DNA of 64,000 nucleotides, from contig DAITOK010000001.1 of the NCBI GenBank assembly GCA_036834125.1, forward strand, positions 57,314 to 121,313. The letters are read 5' to 3'. The position numbers and the translations under genes are program-made. The first letter of the stretch is position 1. Every line of letters starts with the position of its first letter. Below the pieces are notes generated by a model that saw only the letters and a list, made by a program, of their open reading frames with translations, searched no databases and had not been told where the DNA came from. Shown here piece after piece: positions 17,451 to 59,905 of this stretch. Origin of the DNA: Chloroflexota bacterium. Lineage in GTDB: Bacteria > Chloroflexota > Dehalococcoidia > GIF9 > AB-539-J10.

Positions 17451-17452
17451 AT

Positions 17453-21173: not shown

Positions 21174-21189
21174 TTTGCATGAAAATACA

Positions 21190-21514: not shown

Positions 21515-21522
21515 GGATAGCG

Positions 21523-37809: not shown

Positions 37810-39294
37810 TCAGGAGCATTTTGCTAAGTCTTTGCTTGGAACTCTTTTGAGGTGTCTCTCGGTATTGGTCAGCACTAAATTGATGGCGTTAGCAGCAGCA
37901 GCAAACGAAAAATACACAGGCAAGCCGGAAGAAACACAATTACAAATAGCATGAAAAATAGCTTCAGCCTCTTGCGGTACGATGCTGGGTTCCAGCACCA
38001 TTGCTACTGGTTTTGATAACAGTCCTTGCTTTACAGCAAACCTGCTCATCAACACCTCTAAATGGTTTTCGGCAATACGAGAGGTTGTGAATTGTCCTGT
38101 CCGTATGAACATGATAAAGAGATCGTTTCCTTCCCACTTTGAAAGAATGTCAAGTGTTTTGATTACACCTTCGAGGTTAAACATAGCCTGCGAATAATCT
38201 ATGGGATTGCGCAGAATGTTGCCTGCGATGGGAGTGAACTCTCGTATCTGGGCAATAATTTCTGGAGGAAGTGGCGGAATTCTCAGTCCTCTCCTTTCAA
38301 ACTCGTCAGCGATTAAGACGCTAGCTCCACCCCCAGCACCGAATAGTACCGCATTCCTACCTTTGGGGAGAGGCAAAAACAGAAGTGTAACCAATACATC
38401 GGTCATTTCTTCAATGCTGCTGACATTGATAATTCCTAATTGTTTACAAAGGGCATCCCAGGTGGTTCGGCTTCCCGCAAGTGCTGCAGTATGACCGGCA
38501 GCTGCCCGAGCACCTCCCTCGGTAAGTCCACCCTTGAGCAGTATCACTGTCTTTTCCTCTGTTGCCTGCTCCAGAGCTCGTCGGAATCGCTTCCCATCTT
38601 TAACCCCTTCAATGTAAAGAGCTATTATTTTGGTGTCGGGATCGTGGGCAAGATACTCGAGCAAATCACTTTCATTAATGTCACATGCGTTTCCGTAACT
38701 TATGACTTTGCTGAAACGGACACCTCGCAATGCTGCCTGTCTGACTAGATAAATGGAATTGCCGCCACTTTGGCTGATGACTCCTACTGTCCCTCTTTCC
38801 TTAGGAAAGGCGGGAGTAAATGATAATCGTGAGTCGGGACAATAAATGCCCATACAATTAGGTCCAATAATTCTGACCCCGGTCCTTCGGGCAATCTCTA
38901 CCAGTTCAGATTCCAACTTTATTCTTGACTCTTCACCGGTTTCACTGAAGCCGGCTGTGCAAAAGTGAATTGCTCGGACTCCTTTTTCGGCGCATTCTTC
39001 TACAAGCTTAGGGGCGACTTGGGCATTAACCAAGCCGATCACATAATCCACGTTACCCGGGACATCTTTGAGACTCGTATAAATCTTGTGCCCTTGAATC
39101 TCCCCACCCTTGGGATTAACAAGATAAAGAGGGCGGTCGAATTCAAATTCCATAAGCCCTTCGAAGAAGGTGCGTGTCCAGTGCCAGGTCTCTGCAGTTG
39201 TAATACCTACGAGAGCGATAGAATTAGGGTGAAACAAAAAATCTAAGTCGTGTTGATACGTATTATTCATCTTATTCATATTACCTACCAGCAA
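37810..39294 (-). CDS. ADP-forming acyl-CoA synthetase alpha subunit (CoA-binding plus CoA-ligase domains, phospho-His)
   Basis: IALVGIT CoA-binding and GKDGKRF motifs, with GGLTEGGARAAAGHTAALAGS as the catalytic His loop. There is no ATP-grasp beta domain. Confidence 0.65.
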   Translation of the reverse strand: MLVGNMNKMNNTYQHDLDFLFHPNSIALVGITTAETWHWTRTFFEGLMEFEFDRPLYLVNPKGGEIQGHKIYTSLKDVPGNVDYVIGLVNAQVAPKLVEECAEKGVRAIHFCTAGFSETGEESRIKLESELVEIARRTGVRIIGPNCMGIYCPDSRLSFTPAFPKERGTVGVISQSGGNSIYLVRQAALRGVRFSKVISYGNACDINESDLLEYLAHDPDTKIIALYIEGVKDGKRFRRALEQATEEKTVILLKGGLTEGGARAAAGHTAALAGSRTTWDALCKQLGIINVSSIEEMTDVLVTLLFLPLPKGRNAVLFGAGGGASVLIADEFERRGLRIPPLPPEIIAQIREFTPIAGNILRNPIDYSQAMFNLEGVIKTLDILSKWEGNDLFIMFIRTGQFTTSRIAENHLEVLMSRFAVKQGLLSKPVAMVLEPSIVPQEAEAIFHAICNCVSSGLPVYFSFAAAANAINLVLTNTERHLKRVPSKDLAKCS

Positions 39295-39528: not shown

Positions 39529-41004
39529 GTGGTAAATAAGGACCGGCATTTGGAAAAGCAAAGGCTTAATAGATTTGAATATATTTTCCATCCCAGAACA
39601 GCAGCTGTAATAGGAGCTTCTGAAAGCGACGGTTTTTCGCAGGCTTTAATGGGCACGAAGCTGCGAGACAATGTGTTCTTTGTTAATCCTAAGTACAAGG
39701 AACTCCACGGTAAGAAATGCTACGCCAGTATTCTAGACATAGAAACTGAAATTGATTATGTCATTATAGCTGTGCCGGCACAGCATGTGCCCAGTGTGTT
39801 AAGTGAATGCATTAAGAAGGGAGTGAAGACAGTTCACATCTTCACGGCTGGTTTTAGTGAAACGGGAATAGAAGAAAGGAAGGCTTTGGAAGACCAAATA
39901 CGAGAGATGGCTAGAGGTAAGGTCAACCTGATTGGTCCTAATTGCATGGGAATATGTTGTCCAAAATCAGGTTTAGCTTTTATTCCAGATGTGTTAGTTG
40001 AGGAAGGTCCTGTGGGGGTGATTTCACAAAGCGGCACCTTCGCTGAGCAGTTCCTGTCTATCGGGAAGCTCAGAAATGTGAGGTTCAGCAAGGTTATAAG
40101 CTACGGGAATGGTATAGACCTCGACTGTCCGGATTTTCTGGAATATTTGGCGTACGATGTCGGGACGAAGGTTATTGCCTTGTATATAGAAGGGACGAGA
40201 GATGGGAAGCGACTCAAAGCTGCTATGACCGAAGCTGCTAGGTTAAAACCGGTAGTGGCACTTAAAGGGGGAGTAACTGAACATGGTCGTCGCGCAGCGT
40301 CTTGTCATACAGGTTCATTGGCTGGCTCACCAGAAATCTGGAGTTCGTTTTTTAGACAGGCGGGCGTACTGCAGGTTGAGGACTTTGACGAATTACTGGA
40401 CACAAGTTTGGCGTTGTCCTGTGTTTTGCCTCCTGAAGGAAAAGGGACTGCTATTATTACCAACTCTGGTGGTTTTAGTGTGCTGGAAACAGACCTATGT
40501 GTAAAAGTGGGATTGGAAGTCCCTCAGTTTACGAAAGAAACAATGACCGAATTGCGTAAGATGGTACCGGTAGCGGGGACAAGTATAAACAACCCACTGG
40601 ATGCTTGGCCGATATACTACAATACCCCTGGGACATCAGGGACACTTGCCGATGCTATCAAGGCGTTGTCCAATGACAGGAATATTCACTGCATAGTATT
40701 GCACTTTGACGAGGTGCGTTACTTGCGACATGTGTTTGGGGAGGCGACCGAAGGCTTTTTGAAGGAACTTGTGAAGATTATGATCCAAGGGTGCAAGTAC
40801 GCTCGAGATGAAGCAGGGAAGGCTGTGGTAATTTGTGTCTCACTCGATGCTTATTCAGAGGATGAAGAAGACAGAAAGTATCACCTACTTGTCAAGAAGG
40901 CTTTTGAAAGGGAGGAGTTCCCAGTATATCCCTCGTTAGCTGCGTGTATCAAGGTTTTATTCAACCTATACCGGTATCATCGGCAGCGCCTTATGCTAAT
41001 CTAG
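39529..41004 (+). CDS. ADP-forming acyl-CoA synthetase alpha subunit paralog
   Basis: The same architecture, with GGVTEHGRRAASCHTGSLAGS. It is divergent from its paralog. Confidence 0.65.
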   Translation: MVNKDRHLEKQRLNRFEYIFHPRTAAVIGASESDGFSQALMGTKLRDNVFFVNPKYKELHGKKCYASILDIETEIDYVIIAVPAQHVPSVLSECIKKGVKTVHIFTAGFSETGIEERKALEDQIREMARGKVNLIGPNCMGICCPKSGLAFIPDVLVEEGPVGVISQSGTFAEQFLSIGKLRNVRFSKVISYGNGIDLDCPDFLEYLAYDVGTKVIALYIEGTRDGKRLKAAMTEAARLKPVVALKGGVTEHGRRAASCHTGSLAGSPEIWSSFFRQAGVLQVEDFDELLDTSLALSCVLPPEGKGTAIITNSGGFSVLETDLCVKVGLEVPQFTKETMTELRKMVPVAGTSINNPLDAWPIYYNTPGTSGTLADAIKALSNDRNIHCIVLHFDEVRYLRHVFGEATEGFLKELVKIMIQGCKYARDEAGKAVVICVSLDAYSEDEEDRKYHLLVKKAFEREEFPVYPSLAACIKVLFNLYRYHRQRLMLI

Positions 41005-41137: not shown

Positions 41138-42271
41138 TCAAAGCAATCCAATCTTGCGGGCCACTATCTCTTTATGGAAGTCGGTGTTACCGAAGGCGAG
41201 ATCTGCGGATTTGCTCCTGCGGTAATAAAACGATATGTCATGGTCGGCACTCGTACCAATTCCCCCGTGTAGTCTGACTGCCCATTTACTGACATCCTTG
41301 TACACTTCGTTGACGTATGCCTTTGCCATGGAGGCTTCCTTAGCGCAGGGAAGTCCTTGGGACTCCATCCAGGCTACCTTATACGTTAGATAACGGCTCG
41401 TTTCCATTGCTGTCCACATGTCAGCCATCTTGTGTTGAAGCGCTTGGAAAGCACCTATAGGTCGCTCATATTGGACCCTTTCTTTCGAATAAGCCACGGT
41501 CATTTCTACACAGACCTCTATGGCACCAACGGACTCAGCGGACTTGATGATGGCGCCTTTACGTAGTATTGTTTCCACAAGAGGCCAGCCCTCGTCGAGC
41601 TTGCCGATGATGCTTCCCTTGGGGACAGTAACGTTGTTAAAACTTACCTCGCATAGCTTGTCGTGGGCGATGGTGGGCATGACCTCGCACCTTACGCCGG
41701 GGGCTTTCGCATCCACCATAAAGATGGTGACTCCCTTCTCAGGAGAAGAGCCTTCTTTTGTTCTTGCGACACACAGGATATAGTTGGCAACATGTGCCAT
41801 TTCCACGAATAGCTTTGTGCCATTTATGATGAAATCATTTCCTTTGGGAGTGGCTTTGACAGTGATTCCCGAGGCGTCGAAAACACCTTCGCTTTCCAGT
41901 AAAGCTGTAGTTAGAATTAGTTTGCCCTGAGCTATCTTGGGAAGAAAGTCCTTCTTCTGCTCCTCTGTTCCTGCCTCGAGTATAGGGAAAGTGCTGGTTA
42001 TGGTCGCTATCAGCGGCCCAGGGAGAATATTTCTACCTATCTCTTCCATGAGGATAACAAGATCGAGGAAGCTATAACCCATGCCCCCGTATTGCTCAGG
42101 TATTATGAGTCCCATCCAGCCCAGTTCAGCCATCTTCTTCCAGACCTCTGGAGAGTATCCCTGGTCGCTCTGTTCCAGTTTTCTTACCAGCGTCTTGGGG
42201 CATTCCGTGGTAAGAAAATCTCGCGCCATTTTCTTCAGTATTTCTTGCGTTTCACTAAGTCTAAGATCCAT
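41138..42271 (-). CDS. Acyl-CoA dehydrogenase
   Basis: The three-domain ACAD fold, with a C-terminal catalytic Glu region (HGGIGTSADHDI). Confidence 0.8.
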   Translation of the reverse strand: MDLRLSETQEILKKMARDFLTTECPKTLVRKLEQSDQGYSPEVWKKMAELGWMGLIIPEQYGGMGYSFLDLVILMEEIGRNILPGPLIATITSTFPILEAGTEEQKKDFLPKIAQGKLILTTALLESEGVFDASGITVKATPKGNDFIINGTKLFVEMAHVANYILCVARTKEGSSPEKGVTIFMVDAKAPGVRCEVMPTIAHDKLCEVSFNNVTVPKGSIIGKLDEGWPLVETILRKGAIIKSAESVGAIEVCVEMTVAYSKERVQYERPIGAFQALQHKMADMWTAMETSRYLTYKVAWMESQGLPCAKEASMAKAYVNEVYKDVSKWAVRLHGGIGTSADHDISFYYRRSKSADLAFGNTDFHKEIVARKIGLL

Positions 42272-42302
42272 TGATTGATTCCTCCTTATCGCAAGCTTCG
42301 GT

Positions 42303-43487
42303 TTATCTTATTCTAGGTAAGCCAAGTCCATACCAGGCGATGATGTTTCTTTGAATTTCATTTGTTCCCATGGAGACGGTAGTTATGAAGTGCTCATGGT
42401 ACATCCTTTCCCATATCCCGTCCAAAGGAGCCCACCGGGAAGTCTTAACCTGCCCGTAGGGTCCCAGGATGTCCGTAGCCAGAAAAGCGAAACGCTCGCC
42501 CAGCTCGCTGAAGAAGATTTTGCCTGCCGAGGCATCCATCAAGGACATCTCATTTCTGTTCTGCAGGTCGGCAACACGATATGCTAAGGCGCGAGCTGCC
42601 TCCAGCTGGCAAGCTAGCTCAGCCAGTCGGTTACGAACGAGCGGATTCTTAGCCAGCGGTTGTCCGTGTCGTTTGGTCTCATTGCAGTATTTGACTAGTT
42701 CTTCGAGTGCACGGAACATAGTCATGATTTCGTTTATCCCAGATCTCTCGAAACCAGCCAGAAGATTTACCACTGCCCAGCCCTCATGTTCTTGACCGAC
42801 AATGTTTTTGGCTGGCACATGAACATCATCGAAGTAAACCTCACAGTAGGGAGTATGGCCATCCAGATAGGGGATGGGTCGTACCGTAATCCCAGGTGTC
42901 TTCATGTCGAGCAAAATAAAGGTCATATTGTGGTGTTTTCGACCAGCGGGATCGGTCTTAAACACGCCGAAGCCCCAGTCAGCCCGATGAGCACCGGTAT
43001 TCCAGGTCTTCTGACCGTTTATGACATATTCGTCGCCTTTCCTGATCGCGGTGGTGGTCAAGGAAGCGAGGTCCGAACCAGCATTGGGTTCGCTCCAAAG
43101 TTCACACCACATGACTTCTCCTCTGGCGATGGGGGGTAAGAATTCTCTCTTTATTTCTTCACTAGCAGCCTGGAGCAATGTCGGTGCCAGCATTTGCACC
43201 CCAAAGATATCTACCCCCGGAATGCCGTAATATCCTCTGGCTTCAGCAAAAAGAACGCGGTCCATCATGTCGCCCTTGCCACCATATTGCGCTGGCCAAC
43301 CTAGCGCGAGCCAGCCTTCCTTGGCGAATTCCTTGGCGCAGTAGAGGTGATATTTCCAGCATTCGTCGTCTTCAAAGATGGTTTCCAATCCTACAAAGCT
43401 GGCTGGCTTCTTCTTTTCGAGTTCTTTGCATTTGTCATAGAATTGCTGTCTACGAACCTTCTGTTCTTCTGTAAGAGAAAAATCCAT
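42303..43487 (-). CDS. Acyl-CoA dehydrogenase family protein
   Basis: N-terminal, middle and C-terminal ACAD domains; 394 aa. Confidence 0.75.
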   Translation of the reverse strand: MDFSLTEEQKVRRQQFYDKCKELEKKKPASFVGLETIFEDDECWKYHLYCAKEFAKEGWLALGWPAQYGGKGDMMDRVLFAEARGYYGIPGVDIFGVQMLAPTLLQAASEEIKREFLPPIARGEVMWCELWSEPNAGSDLASLTTTAIRKGDEYVINGQKTWNTGAHRADWGFGVFKTDPAGRKHHNMTFILLDMKTPGITVRPIPYLDGHTPYCEVYFDDVHVPAKNIVGQEHEGWAVVNLLAGFERSGINEIMTMFRALEELVKYCNETKRHGQPLAKNPLVRNRLAELACQLEAARALAYRVADLQNRNEMSLMDASAGKIFFSELGERFAFLATDILGPYGQVKTSRWAPLDGIWERMYHEHFITTVSMGTNEIQRNIIAWYGLGLPRIR

Positions 43488-44236: not shown

Positions 44237-44265
44237 ATTATCTCTTAAATGCTGCCGTTTGTCAA
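44237..44265 (-). promoter_or_regulatory. Candidate sigma-70 promoter for rpsP (TTGACA-17-GATAAT), implying a near-leaderless transcript
   Basis: On the minus strand, TTGACA (44265-44260), a 17-nt spacer, then GATAAT (44242-44237), with the ATG at 44226 only 10 nt past the -10. Confidence 0.4.
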
Positions 44266-44328: not shown

Positions 44329-44802
44329 TTAAGCATTGGTTCTGGGAGAGAATATGTACACGGTTGCTGTTTTGAGCTTCCGTCTTAGCAAGGCTAATTG
44401 TGGCTTATATAACCTAATTCTTCTTTCTTGGCATACGACAGGCATGTTAAGCATTATTGATATTATTTTCTCCTCTGCGTTTCCTCCGCATATTACGGTT
44501 GCTTCGTTTTGATTTGCTCCCAGCTCTATAAGAATTGGCAACGGCAACGCCTCTTGTTCTTCCGGCTCTAATAGGCTTGCTAAATATTGAAGCTCACTTC
44601 TCTTGAAGAAATGGGTGCTGCCATCATTACATAACACATAGGGATATTGTTCGTTCAATAGAGTTGATAACCGTTTTTGGCTCTGAGGCACCCCAGCATT
44701 TACAACCCTGAGCTCACCTCTTAGGCATTCTTGGAGCATCTTTTCGCAGAGAGATTGTCCCGATTGTGTCTGTGAAGGCTCGTTTTCTAATGGCTTGGGC
44801 AT
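44329..44802 (-). CDS. Hypothetical 157-aa protein co-transcribed at the 3' end of the A-ATPase operon (possibly DUF61/UPF0216-like)
   Basis: It starts 4 nt after the subunit D stop. The suggested resemblance to the archaeal UPF0216 family rests only on the pattern ...LL.EQYPYVL.NDGS.HFFKRSEL.YLASLL, recalled from memory and not verified. Confidence 0.45.
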   Translation of the reverse strand: MPKPLENEPSQTQSGQSLCEKMLQECLRGELRVVNAGVPQSQKRLSTLLNEQYPYVLCNDGSTHFFKRSELQYLASLLEPEEQEALPLPILIELGANQNEATVICGGNAEEKIISIMLNMPVVCQERRIRLYKPQLALLRRKLKTATVYIFSPRTNA

Positions 44803-44806
44803 TGTT

Positions 44807-45442
44807 TTATCCGCGGACGACCAGCACTTTAACGCGTTTCAGCCGTGCTTTCTCTTCTCTATCTCTTTCCTCAAATTTCATATTCAAGTAATTTATCGTC
44901 GCTTGTAACCCTGGGATTATTATATACTCCAGAGCGTTGGTTATCCTTTTCGTCCTATTTATTTCCATAGCTAGTAATTCAAAGTTCCTCTGAAGCTCAG
45001 CCAATTCTACAATGGCTCTCAGACATTCCCCAGATAGCTGCGCAGCATGGTCTAGCCAAGAGGATGTATCAACCGGGTTATACCTTTTCATCCCGCCTTT
45101 GTTGGGACTATCTTGGAGTTCCAAGGATGGTACTCGTACACCGGCTATGCTTCTTGAGCCAGCGGTAATTTTTAGCTCACTCTCAGTAGCTATCAGTTCC
45201 TTGTCCAGTGCTATGTAGCCGTGATATCCAGAGGCAACTGAAAGTGCTTTATAAAGGTTGGAAAATTCGTCCAGCAATTTTCTTTTAGCTTCCACTGTTT
45301 CTCTAGCTGTTTGCAGGAATTCCATAGTCAATATGGAAAGCCTGTCTTTTACGATTTTTTGTATTCTTCGTGCTAGCGAAAGTCGGCGTTTTAGTTTTAT
45401 CAGCTCGATCTTTGTTGGCCTGACTTTGATCAATTCTGGCAT
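44807..45442 (-). CDS. atpD: A/V-type ATP synthase subunit D
   Basis: A coiled-coil protein; MPELIKVRPTKIELIKLKRRL. Confidence 0.8.
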   Translation of the reverse strand: MPELIKVRPTKIELIKLKRRLSLARRIQKIVKDRLSILTMEFLQTARETVEAKRKLLDEFSNLYKALSVASGYHGYIALDKELIATESELKITAGSRSIAGVRVPSLELQDSPNKGGMKRYNPVDTSSWLDHAAQLSGECLRAIVELAELQRNFELLAMEINRTKRITNALEYIIIPGLQATINYLNMKFEERDREEKARLKRVKVLVVRG

Positions 45443-45453
45443 TTTCTTTGCAT

Positions 45454-46857
45454 CTACTGCGCCTTGCGATACTTGGGATGATACTTTTTGATGAACTCTT
45501 CTCTAATTAGCTTCAAATCTTCTTCTGGTAATCTGGAGAATAGCTCCCAGGCTATAGCTAAGGTCTGTTCTACCGTTCTTTTCTCCCATTCGCCTTGAGA
45601 TATGAATCTCCTCTCAAATTCCTCAGCGTTGGTCAAATATATTCTGTCCCTGTCACTCAGTGCCTCAGTACCTATAATGGTAGATATTTCCCGGAGATAA
45701 CACCCTTCAGCGTAAGCAGCATAAGATTGCATAAAAACGTTGTTGTGGTCTTCTCTGGTTTTGCCAGGACCAATCCCTTCTCGCATCATTCGGGAGAGGG
45801 ATAGAAATACGTCTATAGGGGGGTATATACCTTTCCTTTCCAAGTTTCGGGAAAGAACAATCTGCCCCTCGGTTATATAGCCAGTTAGGTCAGGTATGGG
45901 ATGTGTTATATCATCGTCTGGCATGGTCAAAATAGGCATTACAGTTACAGACCCCTCTTTACCAAAAATTCTGCCAGCTCTTTCGTACATTGTAGCGAGG
46001 TCAGTGTACATATAACCGGGATATCCTCTTCGGGATGGTATCTCTTCACGCATGGAAGAAAGTTCGCGGAGAGCTTCACAATAGTTGGTCATATCGGTAA
46101 GAATGACGAGGACGTGCATGTTCTGTTTCCAGGCTAGATATTCGGCTGCGGTTAAAGCTAATCTGGGCGTTGATATTCGCTCAATAACCGGGTCCGATGC
46201 AGTGTTGATGAAAGCCACAGTTCTCTCTAATGCACCTGTCCTCTCCAGGCTCTTCATAAAAAAGGAGGCATCATCATAGCTGATACCAATAGCAGCAAAT
46301 ACCAGAGCAAATCTTTCCTGTTTTCCCTTTACAGTTGCCTGTCTGATGATTTGAGCGGCAATTCGGTTATGAGGCAACCCTGAGCCACTGAATATGGGCA
46401 ACTTTTGTCCCCTGACCAGCGCATTCAAGCCGTCTATTGCCGAGATTCCTGTTTCAATAAATTCGGCAGGTGGCTGACGAAGTGCAGGGTTTATAGGTTC
46501 ACCGTTAATATCCAGGTAATCTTCGGGAATTACTGGCGGACCTCCATCTATTGGCTCTCCCAGACCATTGAATATCCTTCCTAGGACATCAATAGACACT
46601 GGCAACTTCAAGGTTTCGCCTTTGCATCTTATCTTGCTTCCGATAAGATCCACTTCACTGACGCCACCGAATACTTCGATTATGGTGGCTTCCGCACTGA
46701 TGTCTATGGCTTGGCCGCTTTTTATCTCGCCGTTGGCAAGTTGAACCTCAACCATCTCATTAAATTTTATGCCGGGTATGCTCTCAGCTACCAGCAGAGC
46801 CCCTTTAGCCTTGCTAATTGCTTTTCCTTCTTTAACATAAAGTGAGGATAAGTCCAT
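45454..46857 (-). CDS. atpB: A/V-type ATP synthase subunit B (non-catalytic)
   Basis: A 467-aa protein with a degenerate P-loop region and an [13 protein letters not shown] motif. Confidence 0.85.
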
Positions 46858-46967
46858 AATAGCCTCCTTTTATGAAAACCTGATTACCACCCCGATTAAA
46901 TTGGTAAAAGCTATCTTTTATCTTGGTCTTTAAGAATTTTAGCTTTGACATTGTTCGGGGTTTGTAT

Positions 46968-48713
46968 TTAGCGCTTAGGACTCACCATAATGCGTTCCAT
47001 CTCAGCCCACAATTCCTTAACTTTTTGTTCAAATACATCGTTGGGTATCTCTTTTATCCTGGATATTCTATAGACTATTGGTGATGAACGGATGCTCTCA
47101 ATGCTTGCCCCAGAATTTAGCATTTCTTGAGCTAGCTCGTAGAATTTCAGGATAGTTTTGAGCATGAGTCCGGCTTTCGCTGGCACGCAATAAGTATCAA
47201 CTTCGTGATAGGCACTTTGCTGGAGAAAGTCTTCGCGAATCATCCGGGCAATAAGAAGCAGTAATTTGTCTCTGTCAGGTAGAGCTTCGGGTCCTACGAG
47301 TCTGACAATTTCTTGTAGCTCTGCCTCCTGCTGCAAGATTTTCAAGGCGTTAGCTCTGGTATTCTCCCATCCCGGGTCATGTTTATTCCACCAATTTTTA
47401 ACAGCATCCACATAAAGGCTATAGCTGGTAAGCCAGTTTATGGCTGGGAAATGTCTCTTGTTCGCTAGCGAGACATCCAGAGCATAGAAAGCATCTATTA
47501 TCCTGAGCGTGTTTTGTGTTACCGGTTCACTGAAGTCAGCTCCCGGTGGGCTTACGGCGCCGGCTACCGTTACTGAGCCCTTTCTTTGTGGATTACCTAA
47601 ACATTCCACCATCCCGGCTCTTTCGTAGAAAGACGAAAGCCGAGAACCCATGTAGGAAGGAAAACCTTCCTCTCCAGGCATCTCTTCCAATCTCCCGCTC
47701 ATCTCCCTCATGGCTTCTGCCCATCGTGAAGTAGAATCAGCAACTACCAAAACGTTGTAACCCATGTCCCGGAAATACTCAGCCATGGTGATGCCGACAA
47801 ATATGCTTGCTTCCCTGGCCACCACAGGCATATTAGAAGTGTTAGCTATAAAGATTTCTTTCTCTTGTAGCAATCTTCCAGTGTTGGGATCCTTGAGTTC
47901 TCTAAAGCTATAAAGCACATCAGCCATCTCATTGCCCCGTTCGCCGCAACCAACGTAGATGTTCAGGTGTGTTTGAGCCCACCTAGCTAGCTGTTGCAAA
48001 GCTACGGTCTTCCCGGTGCCAAAGCCTCCGGGTATTGAGGCCTTGCCTCCAAGAGCCAAGGGGAACATATAATCCAAAATTCGCATGCCAGTAGTAAGCA
48101 GACCGGCCGGGTCAAACCTTTGCTTGTAAGGTCGGGGTTTCCTTACTGGCCACTTCTGCATCATCGTGAGTTCTTTTACTTCGCCATTATGCTCTACTAA
48201 AGCTATAGGCTCCTCGACAGTGTAATTGCCTTGTCGTATCTCTTTTATCCTGCCCTTGACTCCCGCTGGCACCATTATCCGATGCTCTATAAGGTGGGTT
48301 TCGGGTACTACGCCTATTATGTCCCCATGGCTAACAACGTCCCCGACTTTCACTTTGGGTACAAACTGCCATTTCTTGTTGCGAGGGAGAGCCAAGGCTT
48401 TGGCGCCTCGCTTTATAAATGGGCCAATATTCTCGCCTAGGGTGAGTAAAGATTTTTGTAGCCCATCGTAAATAGAACCTACAAGCCCAGGTCCGAGCTC
48501 GACACTCAGTACTTGTTCTGTTCTTCTCACAATCTCCCCAACTTTCAGCCCTTGAGTATCTTCGTGTGCCTGAATTATCGCCTTGTTGCCTTCCAGTCCT
48601 ACTATCTCCCCTACAAGTCCCTCTTCACCTATCTCGACAACTTCATAAACCTGGGACCCCAGCATGTCGTCAGCGATAACCAGAGGGCCGGAAACTCTCC
48701 ATATTTTGCCCAT
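46968..48713 (-). CDS. atpA: A/V-type ATP synthase catalytic subunit A
   Basis: A 581-aa protein with Walker A GGFGTGKTV and no intein. Confidence 0.85.
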   Translation of the reverse strand: MGKIWRVSGPLVIADDMLGSQVYEVVEIGEEGLVGEIVGLEGNKAIIQAHEDTQGLKVGEIVRRTEQVLSVELGPGLVGSIYDGLQKSLLTLGENIGPFIKRGAKALALPRNKKWQFVPKVKVGDVVSHGDIIGVVPETHLIEHRIMVPAGVKGRIKEIRQGNYTVEEPIALVEHNGEVKELTMMQKWPVRKPRPYKQRFDPAGLLTTGMRILDYMFPLALGGKASIPGGFGTGKTVALQQLARWAQTHLNIYVGCGERGNEMADVLYSFRELKDPNTGRLLQEKEIFIANTSNMPVVAREASIFVGITMAEYFRDMGYNVLVVADSTSRWAEAMREMSGRLEEMPGEEGFPSYMGSRLSSFYERAGMVECLGNPQRKGSVTVAGAVSPPGADFSEPVTQNTLRIIDAFYALDVSLANKRHFPAINWLTSYSLYVDAVKNWWNKHDPGWENTRANALKILQQEAELQEIVRLVGPEALPDRDKLLLLIARMIREDFLQQSAYHEVDTYCVPAKAGLMLKTILKFYELAQEMLNSGASIESIRSSPIVYRISRIKEIPNDVFEQKVKELWAEMERIMVSPKR

Positions 48714-48762
48714 GTCTTTATCCTCCTATCTTAAAAAACATTACGTGCTTTCATCATGATTT

Positions 48763-49116
48763 TCAAATTTCCACTTCAAATCCAATGGATTCTCGGATAA
48801 GCCTTCTGTAGTATTTTCTGACATCTGGATATTTTGTGCCAGACTTGGACGGAACCTCTACAATTATCGGAGTTATCCCTTTTCTTTTCCTGACCGCGTT
48901 CATGAGGTCTTCAACATACTGGGCATAATCTTCTGACATGATCACTATGCCCACATCGGGTTCGCCTAACAGCTCGGTCATGACTCTCCTGACATCGTCA
49001 CGGATGTCATGACCGCTTTTTATGGTGTAATATTTACTGATGCCGGCTAGCCTTAGTGCGTTGACTAGTTCTTCATCTCCTATTACAGCTATATCTAGGC
49101 GTTTAATGGGTATCAT
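48763..49116 (-). CDS. atpF: A/V-type ATP synthase subunit F
   Basis: A 117-aa protein starting IAVIGDEELVNALRLAGI. Confidence 0.75.
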   Translation of the reverse strand: MIPIKRLDIAVIGDEELVNALRLAGISKYYTIKSGHDIRDDVRRVMTELLGEPDVGIVIMSEDYAQYVEDLMNAVRKRKGITPIIVEVPSKSGTKYPDVRKYYRRLIRESIGFEVEI

Positions 49117-49117
49117 G

Positions 49118-50152
49118 TCACAATACCAAAAAGTTCTTTACTTCTTGGACGGGAACTCCATCCATGATGGCTTTTAGAATCAGCCTCAAGTTGCGTATTT
49201 CGACCTCTTTGAGAACTAAATACCAAGCCATCACCAGTGGGGACAACACTTTTGGTGACAGCAATTCCTTGAGCATCCTGAACTTATGCTTATCAATGAC
49301 TTCATCTACTACTGTGATGCTTCTAGTCTTATCATAGTTTGCTGATACTTCATTTGCTATGTCCCGATATTGGCTATCTTCCAACTTCGCAGGTACGTCA
49401 GCGATTTTGAGGTTGATCAAATCTTTAATACTTTTGTCTGTAAGCCTATAGCCGCCGGCGATAGTCATTTCAGCAACATCGGGTCCTATGCCCTCAATTA
49501 TCGCCCTTAGGACAATTTGCAGGTTTGTTAGGTCTATCACTAAGCCGAAGGCTTTGGCCAACACAAAGCCGTCTTTTATTTTTCTAGCCATGTTTAGCAT
49601 GCTTTTATAATACTCGCTAGCCAGCTTGACTTCGGTAAGAAATTTCACCTTTGCACTTTTGCCTGCTTTGTATTCCTCAATAGCAGGTGTATAATCTCCT
49701 AGTTTGCACCTGACGAGTATTTGGGCGATATCGTATATATTTTCGGCTTTGGAGAGTTCGTCTAGCAGTCCGTGGTTGTAAATAACACCGACCGGTATCA
49801 TACGGGCTTTCTTGCCAGTTGCCATGTTTTGTAGGGCAGCTTTAATATTTGTGACGTCGTACTTCACCATGTATGCTCTAGATAGTTTTAGTATGTCTTT
49901 GGGCAAGAATTTAAATGATTCTACATAGTTAATACGTTGCCTGAGATAACGCCACAACGATTCATCCAGTTCATCAAAAGTTTTGACAGGTAATTCCTCT
50001 AGGAAGCTTCCAATATAGGTTTCTCTGATAACTGCCAGCGCATCCTGAAAGGTGGATGCTGATGCCATCCTATCTATGTGTTCGAGGGTGACAGTTCTGG
50101 GTTCTTCCCCTTTCAAGCAAGCAGATATAAAAGCGTATCTTGGGTTGAGCAC
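49118..50152 (-). CDS. atpC: A/V-type ATP synthase subunit C (d)
   Basis: 344 aa, at the expected operon position between E and F. Confidence 0.7.
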   Translation of the reverse strand: MLNPRYAFISACLKGEEPRTVTLEHIDRMASASTFQDALAVIRETYIGSFLEELPVKTFDELDESLWRYLRQRINYVESFKFLPKDILKLSRAYMVKYDVTNIKAALQNMATGKKARMIPVGVIYNHGLLDELSKAENIYDIAQILVRCKLGDYTPAIEEYKAGKSAKVKFLTEVKLASEYYKSMLNMARKIKDGFVLAKAFGLVIDLTNLQIVLRAIIEGIGPDVAEMTIAGGYRLTDKSIKDLINLKIADVPAKLEDSQYRDIANEVSANYDKTRSITVVDEVIDKHKFRMLKELLSPKVLSPLVMAWYLVLKEVEIRNLRLILKAIMDGVPVQEVKNFLVL

Positions 50153-50161
50153 AACATTACC

Positions 50162-50743
50162 TTACTGAGCCTCAAAAAGTTTCTTACTAATGTCTGGCAG
50201 CAATTTGGGTAACAAGGTTTCCAGTCTGGTCTCGTAGGTGTTATCTATTCTGAGCTTTCCCTCGACGTCTTCGACCACCGCCCCTCCCAGGCAATTGGAT
50301 TCCCTGACCTCCACCACCTTTGCGGACAATTCTCTATCCTCTGCAATGAGCTTTTTTGCCGTGTTTAGATCTTTCGGGGAAACATAGACTCTGGCTTTAC
50401 TCACGCCCAGAGCATTCAAACCCTCTTTGATCAAATTTGCAAGCTGATTTTCGTCAGTGGTAACTTGTGACAAATCCTTGCGCGCTCCGTCAATTATCTT
50501 GGCAATTGCCGCTGCCTTGGCACTTGATAGCTGTTGTCGCGCTTGGATAGAAGCTTGAGCCAAAATTCGAGATGCTTCCTCTTCTGCTTCTTTGACCATT
50601 CTACTGCGCTCTTCCGCGAACCTTGCCTCTCTCTGTCTCTTGGCTTTCTCTTTTTCCTCTCGTGTCTTCTCTTCTGCTTCTTCTATGATGCTCTGGGCTT
50701 CTGCTCTTACTTTATTCAAAACAGCTTGGCTTATTCTTTCCAT
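50162..50743 (-). CDS. atpE: A/V-type ATP synthase subunit E
   Basis: 193 aa, with a charged coiled-coil N-terminus. Confidence 0.75.
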   Translation of the reverse strand: MERISQAVLNKVRAEAQSIIEEAEEKTREEKEKAKRQREARFAEERSRMVKEAEEEASRILAQASIQARQQLSSAKAAAIAKIIDGARKDLSQVTTDENQLANLIKEGLNALGVSKARVYVSPKDLNTAKKLIAEDRELSAKVVEVRESNCLGGAVVEDVEGKLRIDNTYETRLETLLPKLLPDISKKLFEAQ

Positions 50744-50756
50744 TTTCAGTATGCTC

Positions 50757-51218
50757 CTAGAAAAGTCCCAGCAAAACCAACACCAGCACGGTGAACACTA
50801 TACCAAGTATACCCCATAGTTCCACAAGCACAGCTAATATCATGGTCGTCGTTAGTAATTTCCCTTTCGTTTTGGGCAAAAGAGAGATGCCTGAAGCACA
50901 AATGATGCCCTGATAGGCTGCCGAGAAACCCTCAGCCGCTGCCACGAAGATACCGCAACCCAGCACAGCTAGCCCGTCACCCATGCTAGCAACCTTGGGC
51001 AATACCTGGATGATGATAAGTATGAGAATTATGAGCCCGTAGAAGGTCTGTGTCATAGGCAAAGACGATAGGAGAATAACGTTTCTAAACTGTCCTGGCT
51101 CCTCTGCCAGTGTGCCAGCCCCTGCTGATGCTGCCATGCCGACGCCTATGGCAGAGCCAGCCATACCACCAGCCAATCCTATGGCTCCACCAAGAATTGC
51201 TAACGCTGTTGGCTCCAT
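50757..51218 (-). CDS. atpK: A/V-type ATP synthase proteolipid subunit K: 16-kDa, four-helix (duplicated hairpin) c subunit with an NtpK-like Na+-binding signature
   Basis: Hairpin 1, helix 2 reads SLPMTQTFYG (Q, not E/D, at the carboxylate position). Helix 3 has AAYQGII, and hairpin 2, helix 4 has AVLVELWGILG (E present). Confidence 0.8.
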   Translation of the reverse strand: MEPTALAILGGAIGLAGGMAGSAIGVGMAASAGAGTLAEEPGQFRNVILLSSLPMTQTFYGLIILILIIIQVLPKVASMGDGLAVLGCGIFVAAAEGFSAAYQGIICASGISLLPKTKGKLLTTTMILAVLVELWGILGIVFTVLVLVLLGLF

Positions 51219-51236
51219 ACTATTTCACACTCCTTT

Positions 51237-53270
51237 CTAAGATTTTACTTTGACAAACACAGGTCGAGTCTTCAACCGGAACGGACTGTATTCCCTGCCG
51301 CCACCTTCGTAAAATTTCAGGAGGAATTCCACAAAGCACAGCCTGAGAGAGTGAACAAAGCAAGAGATGCCGCTGAGAGCGGCATTGATTATGTGCCCAA
51401 TTAGCACAATCAGTGCCGCCAGCATTGGACCTGTTACTTCGCGAATTGCCTCCGGCATCAAATCGGGCAATATTTTAGACATCAGGTTGAAGGAGAAGGC
51501 AAGGTAATAGGTAGCTAAACCCACCCCTGCCAACCGACAGTATGACATAACATCTCCTAAGATGCCTGTTACTTCGGACAACGAGAAAATTCCTCCTAGG
51601 AGAAAACCGTTCATCTTCAGATAGGAGGCAATAATTAAGATTAAGCCGGCACCGGCAGTACATAACAGCGGGATGGGATATGCTTGCTCTGGTAATATGG
51701 AAATATCTACATGAAGGAGATAGTGTATGACCAAGGGTATTGCACCAATTTCAAGCAGGAACAGACCGAGTTTACTTACCACTGTTCCTTTACTGCCTGC
51801 TTTCGCTCCCTTAATGAGCGTCAATATGTGTGCTATGTTCACGTGAATCAAGCCTATCAATATTGAGATGACTATAAATTGAATAGGATTTCCCAGTAGT
51901 GATTCAATCCGACTAGCAAGGGCTAAGCTTTCGATCCCAAAACGCTGGAAGAACTTCCCGAAATAACTGCCTTGGACGAAATTGCCGAAATAGCTGCCTG
52001 TGAGCAAGCCAAAAATAAGCCCAACCACGCCACTGATGTAGAGCATTCTTTGGAATAGTTTAAATCCTTCGGTTTCGGGGTCATCAACGAATTTCTTCAA
52101 ACCGCGATTAGCAAATAGCAGCAGTATGGCCGAATAGGCTACATCGTTCATCATAAGTCCGAAAAAGAACGGGAAAGAATAAGATATGAGAGGCGTAGGG
52201 TCCCACTCCCAATACCTCGGGATGCCGAACAGCTTTACCACGACCTGGAATGGTCGGAAGGCACGGAAATTCCTAAATTTGGTGGGAGGCTCTTCAACCG
52301 CTTGCGGTTTCTGAGTATCAGTGAACACGTAATTCACCTTTTCTTTAACTTCGGAAATCGTATCCTCAACATTAGCCTCGGGAATCCAACCTTCGATTAG
52401 CGTAACATATTTCGCTTCACTAGCTTTGGCTAAAACTGCTAGCCGTTCTGTTTCGGCAGATAACGCCTCACGGAAAAGAACTAGTGTCTTCAGGTTCTCT
52501 CTAGTCCTGTTTTCAATCTCGCTCTGAAGTTTTGCCAGTTCTTCTTCAAAACTGCGAATATTACTGCTAGCTGTTTCGAGGAATTCTCTCAGAGTTACAT
52601 CCTTTTCTGGTATCTGCAAGGCTCTGCCTCCACCATCCCTGACTATGGACTCTATTTTTTCTCGGTCGTGAACTTTGGCAATAACATACAAAACGCTCTC
52701 GTTTTCTACTGTTACCACAATGTGCTCAAGTAGATGCTCTCTAAATTTAGGGTAAATGGTTTCAAATGACTCACGGGGAAATACAAAAACGTGAGAAAAT
52801 AGGTAATCTCCGGAAAAACTCAAATCTCTTAGTCTAATATCAGCAATGTCAGCTTGTTGCCTAAGAGGGTGAAGATATGTGCTTAGTTCTGTAAGTTTCT
52901 TGCTATTCTCTCTCAGTTTGACAGCTATTTGATGCATTTTGCTGAGCTTGGTGCACAGTACTCTCACTTCGCTATCAATTTCATCGAGAGGTTTAGCATA
53001 TACCACTTCAACATCCTGTCCCAAGGAAATTATTTTTTCCCCTTTAGGGACGTAAGCTAATACATCGTTAATGCTGGCTAGTAATTCAGCAACCCTTTTT
53101 CTTTCCTGTTCAAGGGCTTCTTTCTCAACAGGTTTTAATTCCTGGCTTTCCTCAACGTGAAGCACACCCGCAGTGTGCAGAGTTTTTAGAGTTTCAGCGG
53201 AGCGATCCTTGGCGACCATTATCCTGACTTTGACCATAGGGTCGGGTGTGTTGATGATCAAGGGTACCAT
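51237..53270 (-). CDS. atpI: A/V-type ATP synthase subunit I (a)
   Basis: A 677-aa protein with a cytoplasmic N-terminal half and a multi-TM C-terminal half. Confidence 0.8.
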   Translation of the reverse strand: MVPLIINTPDPMVKVRIMVAKDRSAETLKTLHTAGVLHVEESQELKPVEKEALEQERKRVAELLASINDVLAYVPKGEKIISLGQDVEVVYAKPLDEIDSEVRVLCTKLSKMHQIAVKLRENSKKLTELSTYLHPLRQQADIADIRLRDLSFSGDYLFSHVFVFPRESFETIYPKFREHLLEHIVVTVENESVLYVIAKVHDREKIESIVRDGGGRALQIPEKDVTLREFLETASSNIRSFEEELAKLQSEIENRTRENLKTLVLFREALSAETERLAVLAKASEAKYVTLIEGWIPEANVEDTISEVKEKVNYVFTDTQKPQAVEEPPTKFRNFRAFRPFQVVVKLFGIPRYWEWDPTPLISYSFPFFFGLMMNDVAYSAILLLFANRGLKKFVDDPETEGFKLFQRMLYISGVVGLIFGLLTGSYFGNFVQGSYFGKFFQRFGIESLALASRIESLLGNPIQFIVISILIGLIHVNIAHILTLIKGAKAGSKGTVVSKLGLFLLEIGAIPLVIHYLLHVDISILPEQAYPIPLLCTAGAGLILIIASYLKMNGFLLGGIFSLSEVTGILGDVMSYCRLAGVGLATYYLAFSFNLMSKILPDLMPEAIREVTGPMLAALIVLIGHIINAALSGISCFVHSLRLCFVEFLLKFYEGGGREYSPFRLKTRPVFVKVKS

Positions 53271-53275
53271 GTCAG

Positions 53276-53587
53276 TCAGCTTCGCCCTGTGACAATGTTC
53301 ACTACGAGCTCGGTGAGTTCTCTTACTTTTTTATCAGCGTTGATGCTGATTTCGGCAGCTTTTCTTTCGGAGTCTTTAATTTTTCTCTCCGCTTCTGCCC
53401 TGGCTTGGTTTATAATCCTGTCACACTCAGCTTTTACTTCGTCGAGAGAGAGCTGAGAAGAAAGTATTTTCTTAGCTTCTTCCTTAGCTTCGAGAAGAAT
53501 TTCGCTGGCTCTCGCCTTTGCTTCTGAGAGGATCTTTTCAGCTTCAGCTTCGAGAGCTTCTATATTACTGGTGATGTCTTTGGCCAT
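53276..53587 (-). CDS. atpH: A/V-type ATP synthase subunit H (archaeal AhaH-like; bacterial subunit G)
   Basis: A 103-aa charged coiled coil, first gene of the operon. Confidence 0.6.
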   Translation of the reverse strand: MAKDITSNIEALEAEAEKILSEAKARASEILLEAKEEAKKILSSQLSLDEVKAECDRIINQARAEAERKIKDSERKAAEISINADKKVRELTELVVNIVTGRS

Positions 53588-53680
53588 AACGCGTTTTCTT
53601 TGTAATCTTTTTGGGTGGCTACGACAAGATAAATAATCACTTCAGCAAACAGCAAATTAGCCCCATAAATGGCGTTCGTG

Positions 53681-53710
53681 ATTATAGCAAGGTGGACTCA
53701 TTTTTGGCAA
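53681..53710 (-). promoter_or_regulatory. Candidate sigma-70 promoter for the ATPase operon (TTGCCA-18-TATAAT)
   Basis: On the minus strand, TTGCCA (53710-53705), an 18-nt spacer, then TATAAT (53686-53681), about 95 nt upstream of the atpH start. Confidence 0.35.
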
Positions 53711-54513: not shown

Positions 54514-55612
54514 ATGCAAGAAGAAAAGGGAAGTCTAGAAGCTTTGCTCCGGCAAATCTCAGAAGTGATGGTGCGTCTTTGACATCGCCGGCAAAGAACA
54601 AGAGATAGTCAAGGCAGAGGCGGAGTCAGCGGAACCTGATTTCTGGCGCGACACGATCAGAGCTCAGGCTATCATGCGGGAGCTCCGGGGTAAGAAAGAC
54701 CTGGTCAGTGCCTGGCGAGACCTCGAAAAGAAAGCCAGAGAGCTTCAAGAAATGATTGCTCTGGCTATCAAGGAGGAGGACTCTTCTCTTGAGGAAGAGA
54801 TACAACAGGAACTGAGGAAGCTGCAATCTCGGTTTCAAGAACTGGAGAGTCAGCAGCTTTTCACCGGAGATTACGATAATCGGAAAGCCATGCTGGCTCT
54901 TCATGCTGGTGCTGGGGGCACAGAGTCTCAAGACTGGGCGAACATGTTGCTGAGGATGTACCTGAGGTGGGCAGAAAGGCACGGTTACGAAGCAGAGGTA
55001 TTGGATGTCTCTCTCGGTGAAGAGGCTGGTATCAAAAGTGCCATCGTAGAGATAAAAGGGGATTACGCTTACGGCTATCTCAAGGGCGAGCACGGAGTGC
55101 ACAGGCTGGTGAGGCTTTCGCCATTCGATGCTGATCACGCGCGGCATACCTCTTTTGCTCTGGTGGAGGTTCTTCCTGAAGCGGAAGGGACGATGGATAT
55201 CAAAATAAACCCGGAAGACCTAAAAATAGAGACTTTCCGGTCCAGTGGTCCTGGCGGACAGCATATGCAGAAGACAAGTAGCGCTGTGAGAATAACGCAT
55301 TTGCCTACCGGGCTGGTAGCGGCTTGCCAAAGTCAGCGTTCCCAGCACCAAAACAAGGAAGCTGCGTTGAAAGTTCTTTATTCTCGCCTGCTGGAGCTGG
55401 AGCGTAAGAAGAGGGAGGAAGAAAAGGCTAGGTTAAAAGGTGAGCGTATCGAAGCAGCCTGGGGAAACCAAATCCGGAGTTACGTTCTTCATCCGTATAA
55501 GATGGTCAAAGACCACCGCACTGATTACGAAGTTCACGATGCAGAAGCCGTGTTGGATGGGGAACTGGATGGTTTCATCAGTGCCTATCTTCGGTCCCAG
55601 GTGGGGAAATGA
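54514..55612 (+). CDS. prfB: Peptide chain release factor 2, expressed via a programmed +1 ribosomal frameshift at CTT TGA C (54577-54583)
   Basis: ORF1 is ATG 54514 ... CTT (54577-79) TGA (54580-82). Shifting +1 to GAC gives DIAGKEQEIVKAEAESAEPDFWRD, joining ORF 54674..55612, which carries SPF and GGQ motifs. A GGTG lies just upstream of CTT. Confidence 0.85.
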
Positions 55613-58818: not shown

Positions 58819-59262
58819 ATGGAAGACATTGATCTGGCTCGCTCTCTTCTGGAAGAAGAGAAATGCAACTTGGTTATAGTGAAGAAAGGGGATATCCTTT
58901 TCAGCTCTAAAGAACGAGGGATAGCGTCCTTTATTCAGGCTATTCAGCGTTTGGGCAAAGGTTTACATAATGCTGCGATGGCTGACAGGATTGTGGGCTT
59001 AGCTGTAGCCATGCTTTGTATCCATGCTCGGATAGCCTCGGTATATGCCAACATAGGTAGTCAGGAAGCACTGGACTTGCTGAAAGGGCGAGGAGTAGCG
59101 GTTAGTAGCCAGCATGTGGTTCCTCATATTTTCAACTACGATGGCACTGACTTATGCCCTTTTGAAAAGATAGCGAAAAGTTCGGAAAACTCAGCTCAAT
59201 TATTTTCCACCTTGAAATCCATGTTCGGAGGTCTAGATGGTAATAGAGAGGCATTCACATAG
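58819..59262 (+). CDS. DUF1893 (TM1506-like) domain protein
   Basis: The 147-aa ORF shows the pattern LVIVKKGDILFSSKERGIASF...VGLAVAMLCIH; the assignment is from recalled family features. Confidence 0.45.
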   Translation: MEDIDLARSLLEEEKCNLVIVKKGDILFSSKERGIASFIQAIQRLGKGLHNAAMADRIVGLAVAMLCIHARIASVYANIGSQEALDLLKGRGVAVSSQHVVPHIFNYDGTDLCPFEKIAKSSENSAQLFSTLKSMFGGLDGNREAFT

Positions 59263-59905
59263 GAAATTCTGGGCTGCTATTGTTGTTTTGGCGATTCTTG
59301 CTATTACGTTTTCGGTTAGCGCAGCATATGCCGTGGCTGAACTCAAGGGAACACAAAATTCTCTATTGTCGGTACAAAGCGAACTAGAAGCGGCGCAAAC
59401 ACAACTGGCAAGCACAGGAGGAGAGCTGGAAACAACACGGAGCTATCTAGAGGATACACTTGCGGAGCTGAATGAGACGAAAGCTCAGCTTCTTAATTTG
59501 CAAGTTAATTACCAGAGGCTGACCAGAGGATACGGGTATGTATTAAGGGACCCCAGCTATGAAGAGATGAAGGATTTCTTGGCTCGGGACAGGACAAGTG
59601 AGCGGGAGTACCAAGAAGGCGTGTATGTATGTGTTGATTTTGCCCAGGATGTCAAAGCAAATGCTGCAAGAGAAAGGCTTCGCTGTGCTTATGTCGTTAT
59701 TGAGTATCGTGGGGGAACCGGGCATTCTATTATCGCCTTTGACACTACCGATAGGGGGCTTGTGTTTATCGAGCCGCAATTTGATTGGGAGGTTGAGCCG
59801 GAAGTTGGCAGGCGTTATTACCAGTGTGTGAATCCCCCGCCGGGCTATCATATGGTCCAACCTAGCTATGACGATACCATAAGACGAGTTATCGTTATTT
59901 GGTAG
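59237..59905 (+). CDS. Membrane-anchored coiled-coil protein with a C-terminal putative Cys-His-Asp (transglutaminase/papain-like) domain
   Basis: An N-terminal TM (FWAAIVVLAILAITF), a heptad coiled coil, and a C-terminus with YVCVDFA ... GHSIIAF ... DTTDRG. A GGAGG RBS is present; it overlaps the upstream gene by 26 nt. Confidence 0.45.
   Translation: MVIERHSHRKFWAAIVVLAILAITFSVSAAYAVAELKGTQNSLLSVQSELEAAQTQLASTGGELETTRSYLEDTLAELNETKAQLLNLQVNYQRLTRGYGYVLRDPSYEEMKDFLARDRTSEREYQEGVYVCVDFAQDVKANAARERLRCAYVVIEYRGGTGHSIIAFDTTDRGLVFIEPQFDWEVEPEVGRRYYQCVNPPPGYHMVQPSYDDTIRRVIVIW

Follow-up and report, generated by a model that had tools for sequence, protein, structure and literature searches.

A predicted Na+-coupled A-type ATPase operon with a DUF61 gene behind atpD, shared among Dehalococcoidia

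A complete A-type (A1AO, V/A) rotary ATPase operon is located in a stretch of 64,000 nucleotides (nt), here called the window, on contig DAITOK010000001.1 (assembly GCA_036834125.1) of a metagenome-assembled genome (MAG) of the Dehalococcoidia. All sequence features of such an operon are present, apart from a firm profile match for the subunit H. With a probability of roughly 85%, we regard the operon as native to its host and as coding for a presumably Na+-coupled enzyme, which is distributed over a broad clade of the Dehalococcoidia and would be of old archaeal descent, together with a tenth gene belonging to the family DUF61 (UPF0216). This account is built on what was observed directly: which genes there are and in which order, the conservation of functional residues, the distribution of the operon and its place in the tree. 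A previous reading of the window by a model, made from the letters and without database searches (the sequence-only reading), had pointed to the operon, and the analysis described here followed it up.

Gene content and functional residues

The ten open reading frames (ORFs) of the operon, referred to in the following by their subunit letters, are arranged head to tail on the minus strand from 53587 to 44329, with the nine ATPase genes spanning 53587-44807 (Table 1). The intergenic gaps, in order from H to DUF61, are 5, 18, 13, 9, 1, 49, 110, 11 and 4 nt long, and Shine-Dalgarno-like sequences were seen upstream of K, E, A and B. Nine co-directional genes in the order H-I-K-E-C-F-A-B-D, separated by 1-110 nt, had been described by the sequence-only reading, and ORFs, gaps and profiles agree with this. 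The range of 44329-53710 given for these nine genes does contain them all, but it holds ten, the unmentioned tenth being the DUF61 gene.

Table 1. Operon genes and promoter-like sites. Coordinates are positions in the 64,000-nt window; aa, amino acids.
Feature	Position	Strand	Length	Assignment and evidence
atpH	53276..53587	-	103 aa	H/G-type peripheral-stalk subunit; 25 Dehalococcoidia loci keep position
atpI	51237..53270	-	677 aa	membrane a-type stator subunit; V_ATPase_I PF01496 E 2.6e-28; NF004430 303.7 bits
atpK	50757..51218	-	153 aa	proteolipid; ATP-synt_C PF00137 in two stretches; NF006219 153 bits vs cut-off 108
atpE	50162..50743	-	193 aa	peripheral stalk; vATP-synt_E PF01991 E 2.1e-26
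atpC	49118..50152	-	344 aa	GTG start; d-type rotor-coupling; vATP-synt_AC39 PF01992 E 2.1e-46; AhaC TIGR02923 E 4.2e-39
atpF	48763..49116	-	117 aa	central stalk; ATP-synt_F PF01990 E 1.4e-18
atpA	46968..48713	-	581 aa	catalytic; ATP-synt_ab PF00006 E 7.5e-72; ATP-synt_ab_Xtn PF16886 E 6.1e-34; TIGR01043 866.6 bits; NF003220 838 bits (cut-off 470)
atpB	45454..46857	-	467 aa	non-catalytic; NF003235 735.4 bits; TIGR01041 732.4 bits
atpD	44807..45442	-	211 aa	central-stalk subunit; ATP-synt_D PF01813 E 2.2e-49
DUF61/UPF0216 gene	44329..44802	-	157 aa	4 nt past atpD; PF01886 E 1.9e-30; NF003153 at its cut-off
promoter-like site TTGCCA-18-TATAAT	53681..53710	-		TG extended -10; 93 nt upstream of atpH start codon; 11/12 matches
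second promoter-like site TTGACA-17-GATAAT	44237..44265	-		11/12 matches; just upstream of rpsP (start 44226)

Subunits were assigned with Pfam and NCBIfam profiles. I, K, E, C, F, A, B and D exceeded the curated Pfam cut-offs by a wide margin, E-values over both collections ranging from 1e-17 to 1e-261, and the names given to these gene products from the letters alone were retained. H, which fell below the thresholds, was assigned because of its size, coiled-coil character and position, and aligns over its full length to PRK08404. The central stalk is complete, with D, F and C (the d-type subunit) all matched by profiles. For the peripheral stalk, E was matched by its profile, and H is sub-threshold yet full-length, coiled-coil and positionally conserved.

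The residues expected for catalysis and for ion translocation are found in the respective subunits. A contains the Walker A sequence GGFGTGKT (229-236), GERGNE at 257 and the "non-homologous" barrel-sandwich insertion specific for the A/V family. B is a paralogue of A in which no match to G..G.GK[TS] was found, i.e. it has no GKT P-loop, while SGSG is located at 157. In I, the essential stator arginine Arg579 lies within SYCRL (codon 51534-51536) and is aligned to the SYTRL motif of NtpI of Enterococcus hirae, which is the best solved relative of this subunit (8WCI); the Thermus I subunit reached only 94 bits. K is matched above cut-off by PRK08344, a model of the Thermococcales type.

In the enzyme predicted from these features, A3B3 would form the catalytic head, in which the Walker A motif is borne by A, D and F would constitute the central stalk, and C would link D/F to the ring built from K. 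Each K subunit is expected to fold as a four-helix double hairpin with one Na+ site (see below). I would act as the stator, with Arg579 facing the K ring, and E and H as the peripheral stalks.

Transcription would start at a sigma-70-type promoter at 53710-53681 and probably proceed through DUF61. A promoter of the form TTGCCA-18-TATAAT had already been claimed upstream of the operon; the sequence is indeed read at this position on the minus strand and ranks top among 19 promoter-like sites in a scan of 10 kb, in which the number of such sites is not above that of shuffled sequence. The DUF61 gene is probably co-transcribed with atpD, and the second promoter-like site, proximal to rpsP, likely marks the downstream limit of the ATPase transcription unit. 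The 110-nt spacer between A and B did not fold better than shuffled sequence (z -1.56).

Genomic setting, distribution and archaeal affinity

The flanks of the operon are bacterial, as had been recognized before. Ribosomal protein S16 (rpsP) and a KH protein are encoded downstream, endonuclease V (nfi) and release factor 2 (RF2; prfB) upstream, and the rest of the window harbors ordinary bacterial housekeeping genes, further off among them those for RuvA/C, DnaG, sigma-70 and Ffh, besides TrkAH and ABC transporters. An operon of archaeal type in this setting might represent a recent island or an assembly chimera, i.e. archaeal DNA that entered a bacterial contig recently or was joined to it by mistake. 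In favor of this, archaeal A-type proteins are the nearest matches of the subunits among the solved structures, and Pfam describes DUF61 as an archaeal family. Nevertheless, we consider this explanation extremely improbable and effectively refuted. Independent assemblies from ENA and JGI, on contigs of 158 kb and 57 kb, code for the identical A protein with an unchanged gene order, the prfB-nfi and S16-KH flanks recur in many MAGs from different studies, and the GC content of the operon (0.44-0.47) is not deviant but lies inside the window range (0.43-0.52). Furthermore, the operon tree follows the deep Dehalococcoidia radiation, along which the identity of A decreases from 90% to 72%.

For the distribution of the operon, one genome per GTDB species was queried with the A protein, and the ten window proteins were mapped onto the 80 best loci. 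The order H-I-K-E-C-F-A-B-D-DUF61 was found in at least 25 Dehalococcoidia/Chloroflexota species (loci with enough sequence), and the order I-K-E-C-F-A-B-D-DUF61-H in at least 12 loci of Syntrophales/"Deltaproteobacteria". About 17 Dehalococcoidia MAGs keep at least one of the flanks, prfB-nfi on the upstream or S16-KH on the downstream side, and eight of them show both. Metagenomic homologues of A number more than 8000; the top 120 are 88-91% identical, and the named ones among these are all from Dehalococcoidia or Chloroflexi. Close homologues are already annotated by NCBI as "V-type ATP synthase subunit A [Dehalococcoidia bacterium]". Since the operon is common to at least 25 Dehalococcoidia species, the nearest of which share its flanks, it was not acquired by this genome individually. 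Judged from these sequences, the operon is old, has been inherited vertically in a large clade and is no peculiarity of the genome described here. Two loci with 74% A identity, labelled "Opitutia" (L048) and "Gammaproteobacteria" (L051), contain A-B-D without DUF61 and are nested in the Dehalococcoidia clade, a placement that could be due to misbinning or secondary transfer.

In Thermus thermophilus, the ATPase genes are ordered atpGIKECFABD. The order seen in the window had been called archaeal by the sequence-only reading; it is identical to that of the Methanosarcina operon (ahaHIKECFABD), but it is not diagnostic, as ntpFIKECGABD in the Na+-ATPase operon of E. hirae (NtpFIKECGABDHJ; PMC3608713) is the same by homology.

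A neighbour-joining tree was calculated from concatenated A and B sequences (66 taxa, 1046 columns, 200 bootstraps). The Dehalococcoidia formed a clade in 163 of the 200 replicates and the Syntrophales in all of them, while both groups together were recovered in 198/200. Addition of a Bathyarchaeota-labelled locus (L058) gave a clade with 200/200, and further addition of an archaeal contig (L087) one with 170/200. Hadarchaeales, Methanothermobacter, Methanocaldococcus, a second Bathyarchaeota contig, Caldarchaeum and Acidilobaceae are located outside. The bacterial clade is thus nested inside the sampled archaeal A-types, with the limited sampling and the MAG-derived labels of this neighbour-joining tree to be borne in mind.

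The same gradation is seen when the A protein of the window is compared with its homologues on a common phmmer scale. Scores of 959-1181 bits were obtained for other Dehalococcoidia, 924 bits for L058, 892-909 bits for Syntrophales, 816 bits for L087, 762 bits for Pyrococcus horikoshii and 717-752 bits for other archaea. Thermus (655 bits) and E. hirae (637 bits) score below all nine sampled archaeal A proteins (717-924 bits). A place of A and B among ordinary bacterial V-type sequences, an outcome considered by the sequence-only reading, was hence not seen, the two bacterial references being compared by score.

Descent from a classical bacterial V-type lineage (Thermus/Deinococcus or Enterococcus/Clostridia), with no special archaeal link, appears improbable. 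It would be in line with the gene order, which equals ntpFIKECGABD of E. hirae, and with the best solved matches of K and I, which come from E. hirae. However, the latter result is biased, as few archaeal K or I chains are present in the PDB, and both the A scores and the nesting of the bacterial clade within archaeal sequences argue against such a descent. An archaeal origin of the operon is supported by the sequences, although as an old event common to many species. The ancient inter-domain acquisition that had been proposed therefore stands as far as the archaeal affinity is concerned (nesting in the tree, bit scores and DUF61 travelling along), but not as something specific to this genome. 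For the operons of Dehalococcoidia and Syntrophales, the common ancestor would be an A-type operon of archaea in which DUF61 was already present, the latter being inherited together with atpD.

Several points weigh against this account. H remained below both applicable cut-offs, with 26.3 bits against 28 for V-ATPase_G_2 (E 1.2e-5) and 23.6 against 48.5 for AhaH TIGR02926 (E 4.6e-5). A and B just miss the cut-offs of the NCBIfam archaeal equivalogs (TIGR01043, 866.6 against 972 for A; 732 against 845 for B), and by their sequences they are members of the A/V family, not typical archaeal ones. The tree was sampled from the 80 best loci by patterns specific to the A protein of the window, and Thermus, Enterococcus and Thermococcales were compared by bit score. 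The archaeal label of L058 is derived from its MAG bin and its neighbouring genes, a LysW-type cluster and an FrhB-like gene, which fit an archaeon; misbinning is possible. Finally, a terminator-like site was not found between DUF61 and rpsP.

The DUF61 gene behind atpD

The product of the tenth gene scores above the Pfam gathering score of DUF61, a family for which a structure has been solved (5VFK). The family is small, with 1.84 billion proteins yielding 133 clusters at 50% identity, and its named members are from Hadarchaeales, Thermococcales, Methanothermobacter, Odinarchaeia and Thermoproteota. Among the bacterial-labelled GTDB loci with room downstream, 55 of 57 have atpD followed by DUF61, and the loci with this pairing beyond the window include L003, L005, L058, L087, L090, L093 and L094.

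The position of the pair within the ATPase operon varies. DUF61 is located at the operon end in Dehalococcoidia and between D and H in Syntrophales and in the archaeon L087 (D-DUF61-H-I-K-E-C-F-A-B). In Hadarchaeales, the order is H-I-K-E-C-F-D-DUF61 with A and B divergent, in Acidilobaceae (Thermoproteota) A-B-D-DUF61 and in the Bathyarchaeota-labelled L058 C-F-A-B-D-DUF61, while the archaeon L005 has a stand-alone D-DUF61 pair. The gene is found 0.9 kb downstream of atpD in Methanothermobacter. Altogether, the pair spans at least five operon architectures in archaea and two bacterial phyla. DUF61 is unlinked to ATPase genes in P. horikoshii (PH0358) and in two archaeal contigs, one of which is from Odinarchaeia.

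Drawn purely from gene neighbourhood, the reading we tentatively favor, at not quite even odds, is that DUF61 encodes an unrecognised accessory protein of many A-type ATPases, which, acting at the central-stalk subunit D, might serve in assembly or regulation or be a loosely bound tenth subunit. That the gene is an unrelated passenger, merely situated next to atpD, is a serious possibility too, although we would bet against it: the adjacency survives operon rearrangements (Dehalococcoidia, Syntrophales, L087, Hadarchaeales, Acidilobaceae and L005) and is found in nearly all of the bacterial-labelled loci counted above. An identity with AhaG of Methanosarcina was rejected, the AhaG of M. mazei being a protein of 6.3 kDa. 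Neither a published function of DUF61/UPF0216 nor a mention of it in the context of ATPases was found in the literature searched.

Ion coupling, direction of work and the F1Fo ATPase of relatives

The proteolipid K consists of two hairpins with four transmembrane helices and has a single carboxylate, E133 in helix 4. In NtpK of E. hirae, Na+ is reportedly liganded (Murata et al., in 2005) by a Leu carbonyl, a Thr and a Gln of helix 2, a Gln of helix 3 and a Glu of helix 4. L53, T56, Q57, Q103 and E133 of K align on L61, T64, Q65, Q110 and E139 of NtpK (2BL2), and of 64 K genes from related loci, 59 have the corresponding LTQQE motif. Since all five residues of the Na+ site are kept, the enzyme is predicted to be Na+-coupled and to have one ion site for every four helices, its specificity being inferred by homology to NtpK. 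Three related loci (L032, L033 and L055) possess two K genes each, and the tandem second K has LSRQE or ISQKE, not LTQQE, which hints at mixed or altered c-rings.

Within the 64 kb, none of the ORFs with a length of 150 aa or more is F-type, in agreement with what the sequence-only reading had stated for the window, and an N-type operon is not present there either. In four relatives (L031, L032, L054 and L055), a complete F1Fo operon (a, c, b, delta, alpha, gamma, beta, epsilon) is encoded convergently, directly after S16-KH and about 700 bp beyond the A-type operon; in L031 it is located at 15001-21525 on the minus strand. The A proteins of these relatives are 78-80% identical to that of the window, and the four loci branch just outside the subclade to which the window belongs. 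Within this subclade, the corresponding site is occupied by two acyl-CoA dehydrogenase genes. As the F1Fo operon of the relatives is found at a site that holds other genes here, a loss or relocation of F1Fo in the lineage of the window is plausible. From the 64 kb covered, the A-type operon may encode the sole rotary ATPase of the genome (the sequence-only reading had spoken of the main or only one), for which the data are suggestive. Dehalococcoidia with a V/A-type and no F-type ATPase have been reported (West-Roberts et al. 2021, bioRxiv 10.1101/2021.08.23.457424; Brazelton et al. 2022, PMC9469722); for these V-only organisms, the absence of complex I and a life probably based on substrate-level phosphorylation were reported as well (bioRxiv 10.1101/2021.08.23.457424).

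Several genes of energy metabolism are located in the window. Two divergent paralogous genes with CoA_binding/Succ_CoA_lig domains (37810-39294, minus strand, and 39529-41004, plus strand) encode proteins similar to ADP-forming acyl-CoA synthetases, and beside them lie the two acyl-CoA dehydrogenase genes (41138-43487). This set is consistent with ATP formation by substrate-level phosphorylation. A biotin carboxylase gene and a carboxyltransferase/biotin-carrier gene (HMGL-like, PYC_OADA, biotin_lipoyl) at 3844-7251 on the minus strand suggest a two-subunit pyruvate carboxylase, and no membrane-bound, Na+-pumping beta subunit was seen with these genes.

The c subunit of Pyrococcus furiosus is said to have the same four-helix, one-site design (Mayer et al., in 2012). 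The design occurs in E. hirae, whose enzyme is an ATP-driven pump, as well as in the ATP synthase of P. furiosus, and the enzyme of the window might accordingly synthesise ATP from a Na+ gradient or extrude Na+ at the expense of ATP. Operation mainly as a pump, which hydrolyses ATP from fermentation, expels Na+ and energises the membrane like the V-ATPase of E. hirae, has in our estimate close to an even chance. The K design and the Na+ site are those of NtpK, and the operon is adjoined by the acyl-CoA dehydrogenase and ADP-forming CoA ligase genes. Moreover, the relatives that keep F1Fo also have the A-type operon, suggesting distinct roles of the two enzymes. Against a pump stands that rings of P. 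furiosus with one site per four helices reportedly still synthesise ATP.

Somewhat less probable, yet well within consideration, is that the enzyme serves as the ATP synthase of the cell, run by a Na+ gradient made elsewhere (e.g. by pumps of the Rnf or Mrp-hydrogenase type), as in P. furiosus. This would fit the lack of F-type genes within the window, the missing F1Fo operon at the syntenic site of the relatives and the similarity of A, which is highest to the A subunit of an archaeal ATP synthase. On the other hand, neither a Na+-pumping respiratory complex nor a Na+-pumping decarboxylase complex is visible within the 64 kb, two genes for ADP-forming acyl-CoA synthetase-like proteins are present in the window, and V-only Dehalococcoidia are reported to be without complex I and inferred to depend on substrate-level phosphorylation, i.e. 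to be fermentative, which speaks for the pump instead (bioRxiv 10.1101/2021.08.23.457424). Because of this reported lack of complex I and the neighbouring acyl-CoA dehydrogenase and ADP-forming CoA-ligase-like genes, we lean slightly towards a reversible enzyme that would mainly energise the membrane by ATP hydrolysis in a fermentative cell.

Among the other features of the window, the prfB gene has a classical programmed +1 frameshift site (54515-54590, plus strand), where a short ORF starting with the ATG at 54515 ends in CTT TGA C and the RF2 frame continues in +1. Two tRNA genes (12881-12953 and 13292-13363, minus strand) are the sole Rfam matches in the window. Two gene products encoded on the plus strand, of 348 aa (369-1415) and 222 aa (59237-59905), have no Pfam match at E <= 1e-5.

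Among the characterised systems, the V-type Na+-ATPase of E. hirae (2BL2, 8WCI, 3VR2) shares with the predicted enzyme the homologous gene order, the bacterial host, a four-helix K with one carboxylate and the five Na+-ligand positions, and an I subunit with the SYxRL arginine. It differs in its A subunit, which at 637 bits is less similar to that of the window than archaeal A subunits are, and in the end of its operon, formed by ntpH and ntpJ (KtrB-like) instead of DUF61. The archaeal A1AO ATP synthases of Methanosarcina (ahaHIKECFABD(G)) and of P. horikoshii and P. furiosus have the nine subunits in identical order, and A of P. horikoshii is the closest among solved structures (762 bits). 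In contrast to these, the operon of the window resides in a bacterial host behind a putative sigma-70-type promoter, and its A and B are below the NCBIfam cut-offs for archaeal equivalogs. The V/A-ATPase of T. thermophilus (3A5C, 6QUM) is likewise a bacterial A-type enzyme thought to be derived from archaea, with the same gene order, and works as ATP synthase. It is H+-coupled and has a single-hairpin L subunit, unlike K of the window, and scores of 655 bits for A and 94 bits for I set it apart as a clearly different lineage.

Previous reports on V/A-type ATPases in Dehalococcoidia and other anaerobic MAGs (West-Roberts et al. 2021; Brazelton et al. 2022; the ProAD database, 2025) deal with this type of enzyme in this class of organisms. 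In the texts found on these enzymes, there is no mention of DUF61, of Syntrophales as the sister group or of the F1Fo operon adjacent in near relatives. ProAD gives a single A-ATPase for 7% of bacterial genera, 682 of which have the Na+-type (PMC11738941), and a specific statement on Chloroflexota A-types was not found in Mahendrarajah et al. 2023.

The operon is thus already known in kind and in this taxon, and by itself it adds little, as anaerobic bacteria commonly possess A/V-type ATPases with archaeal ancestry and Dehalococcoidia relying on a V-type enzyme only have been published. The succession of atpD and DUF61 in bacteria and archaea is the only fresh point besides the F1Fo operon that neighbours the A-type operon in relatives. 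The conserved pairing represents a testable functional lead. Relatives in which an F1Fo and a Na+-type A-type operon are encoded a few hundred bases apart provide a snapshot of ATPase turnover, which could help to explain the bioenergetic reorganisation in subsurface Dehalococcoidia.

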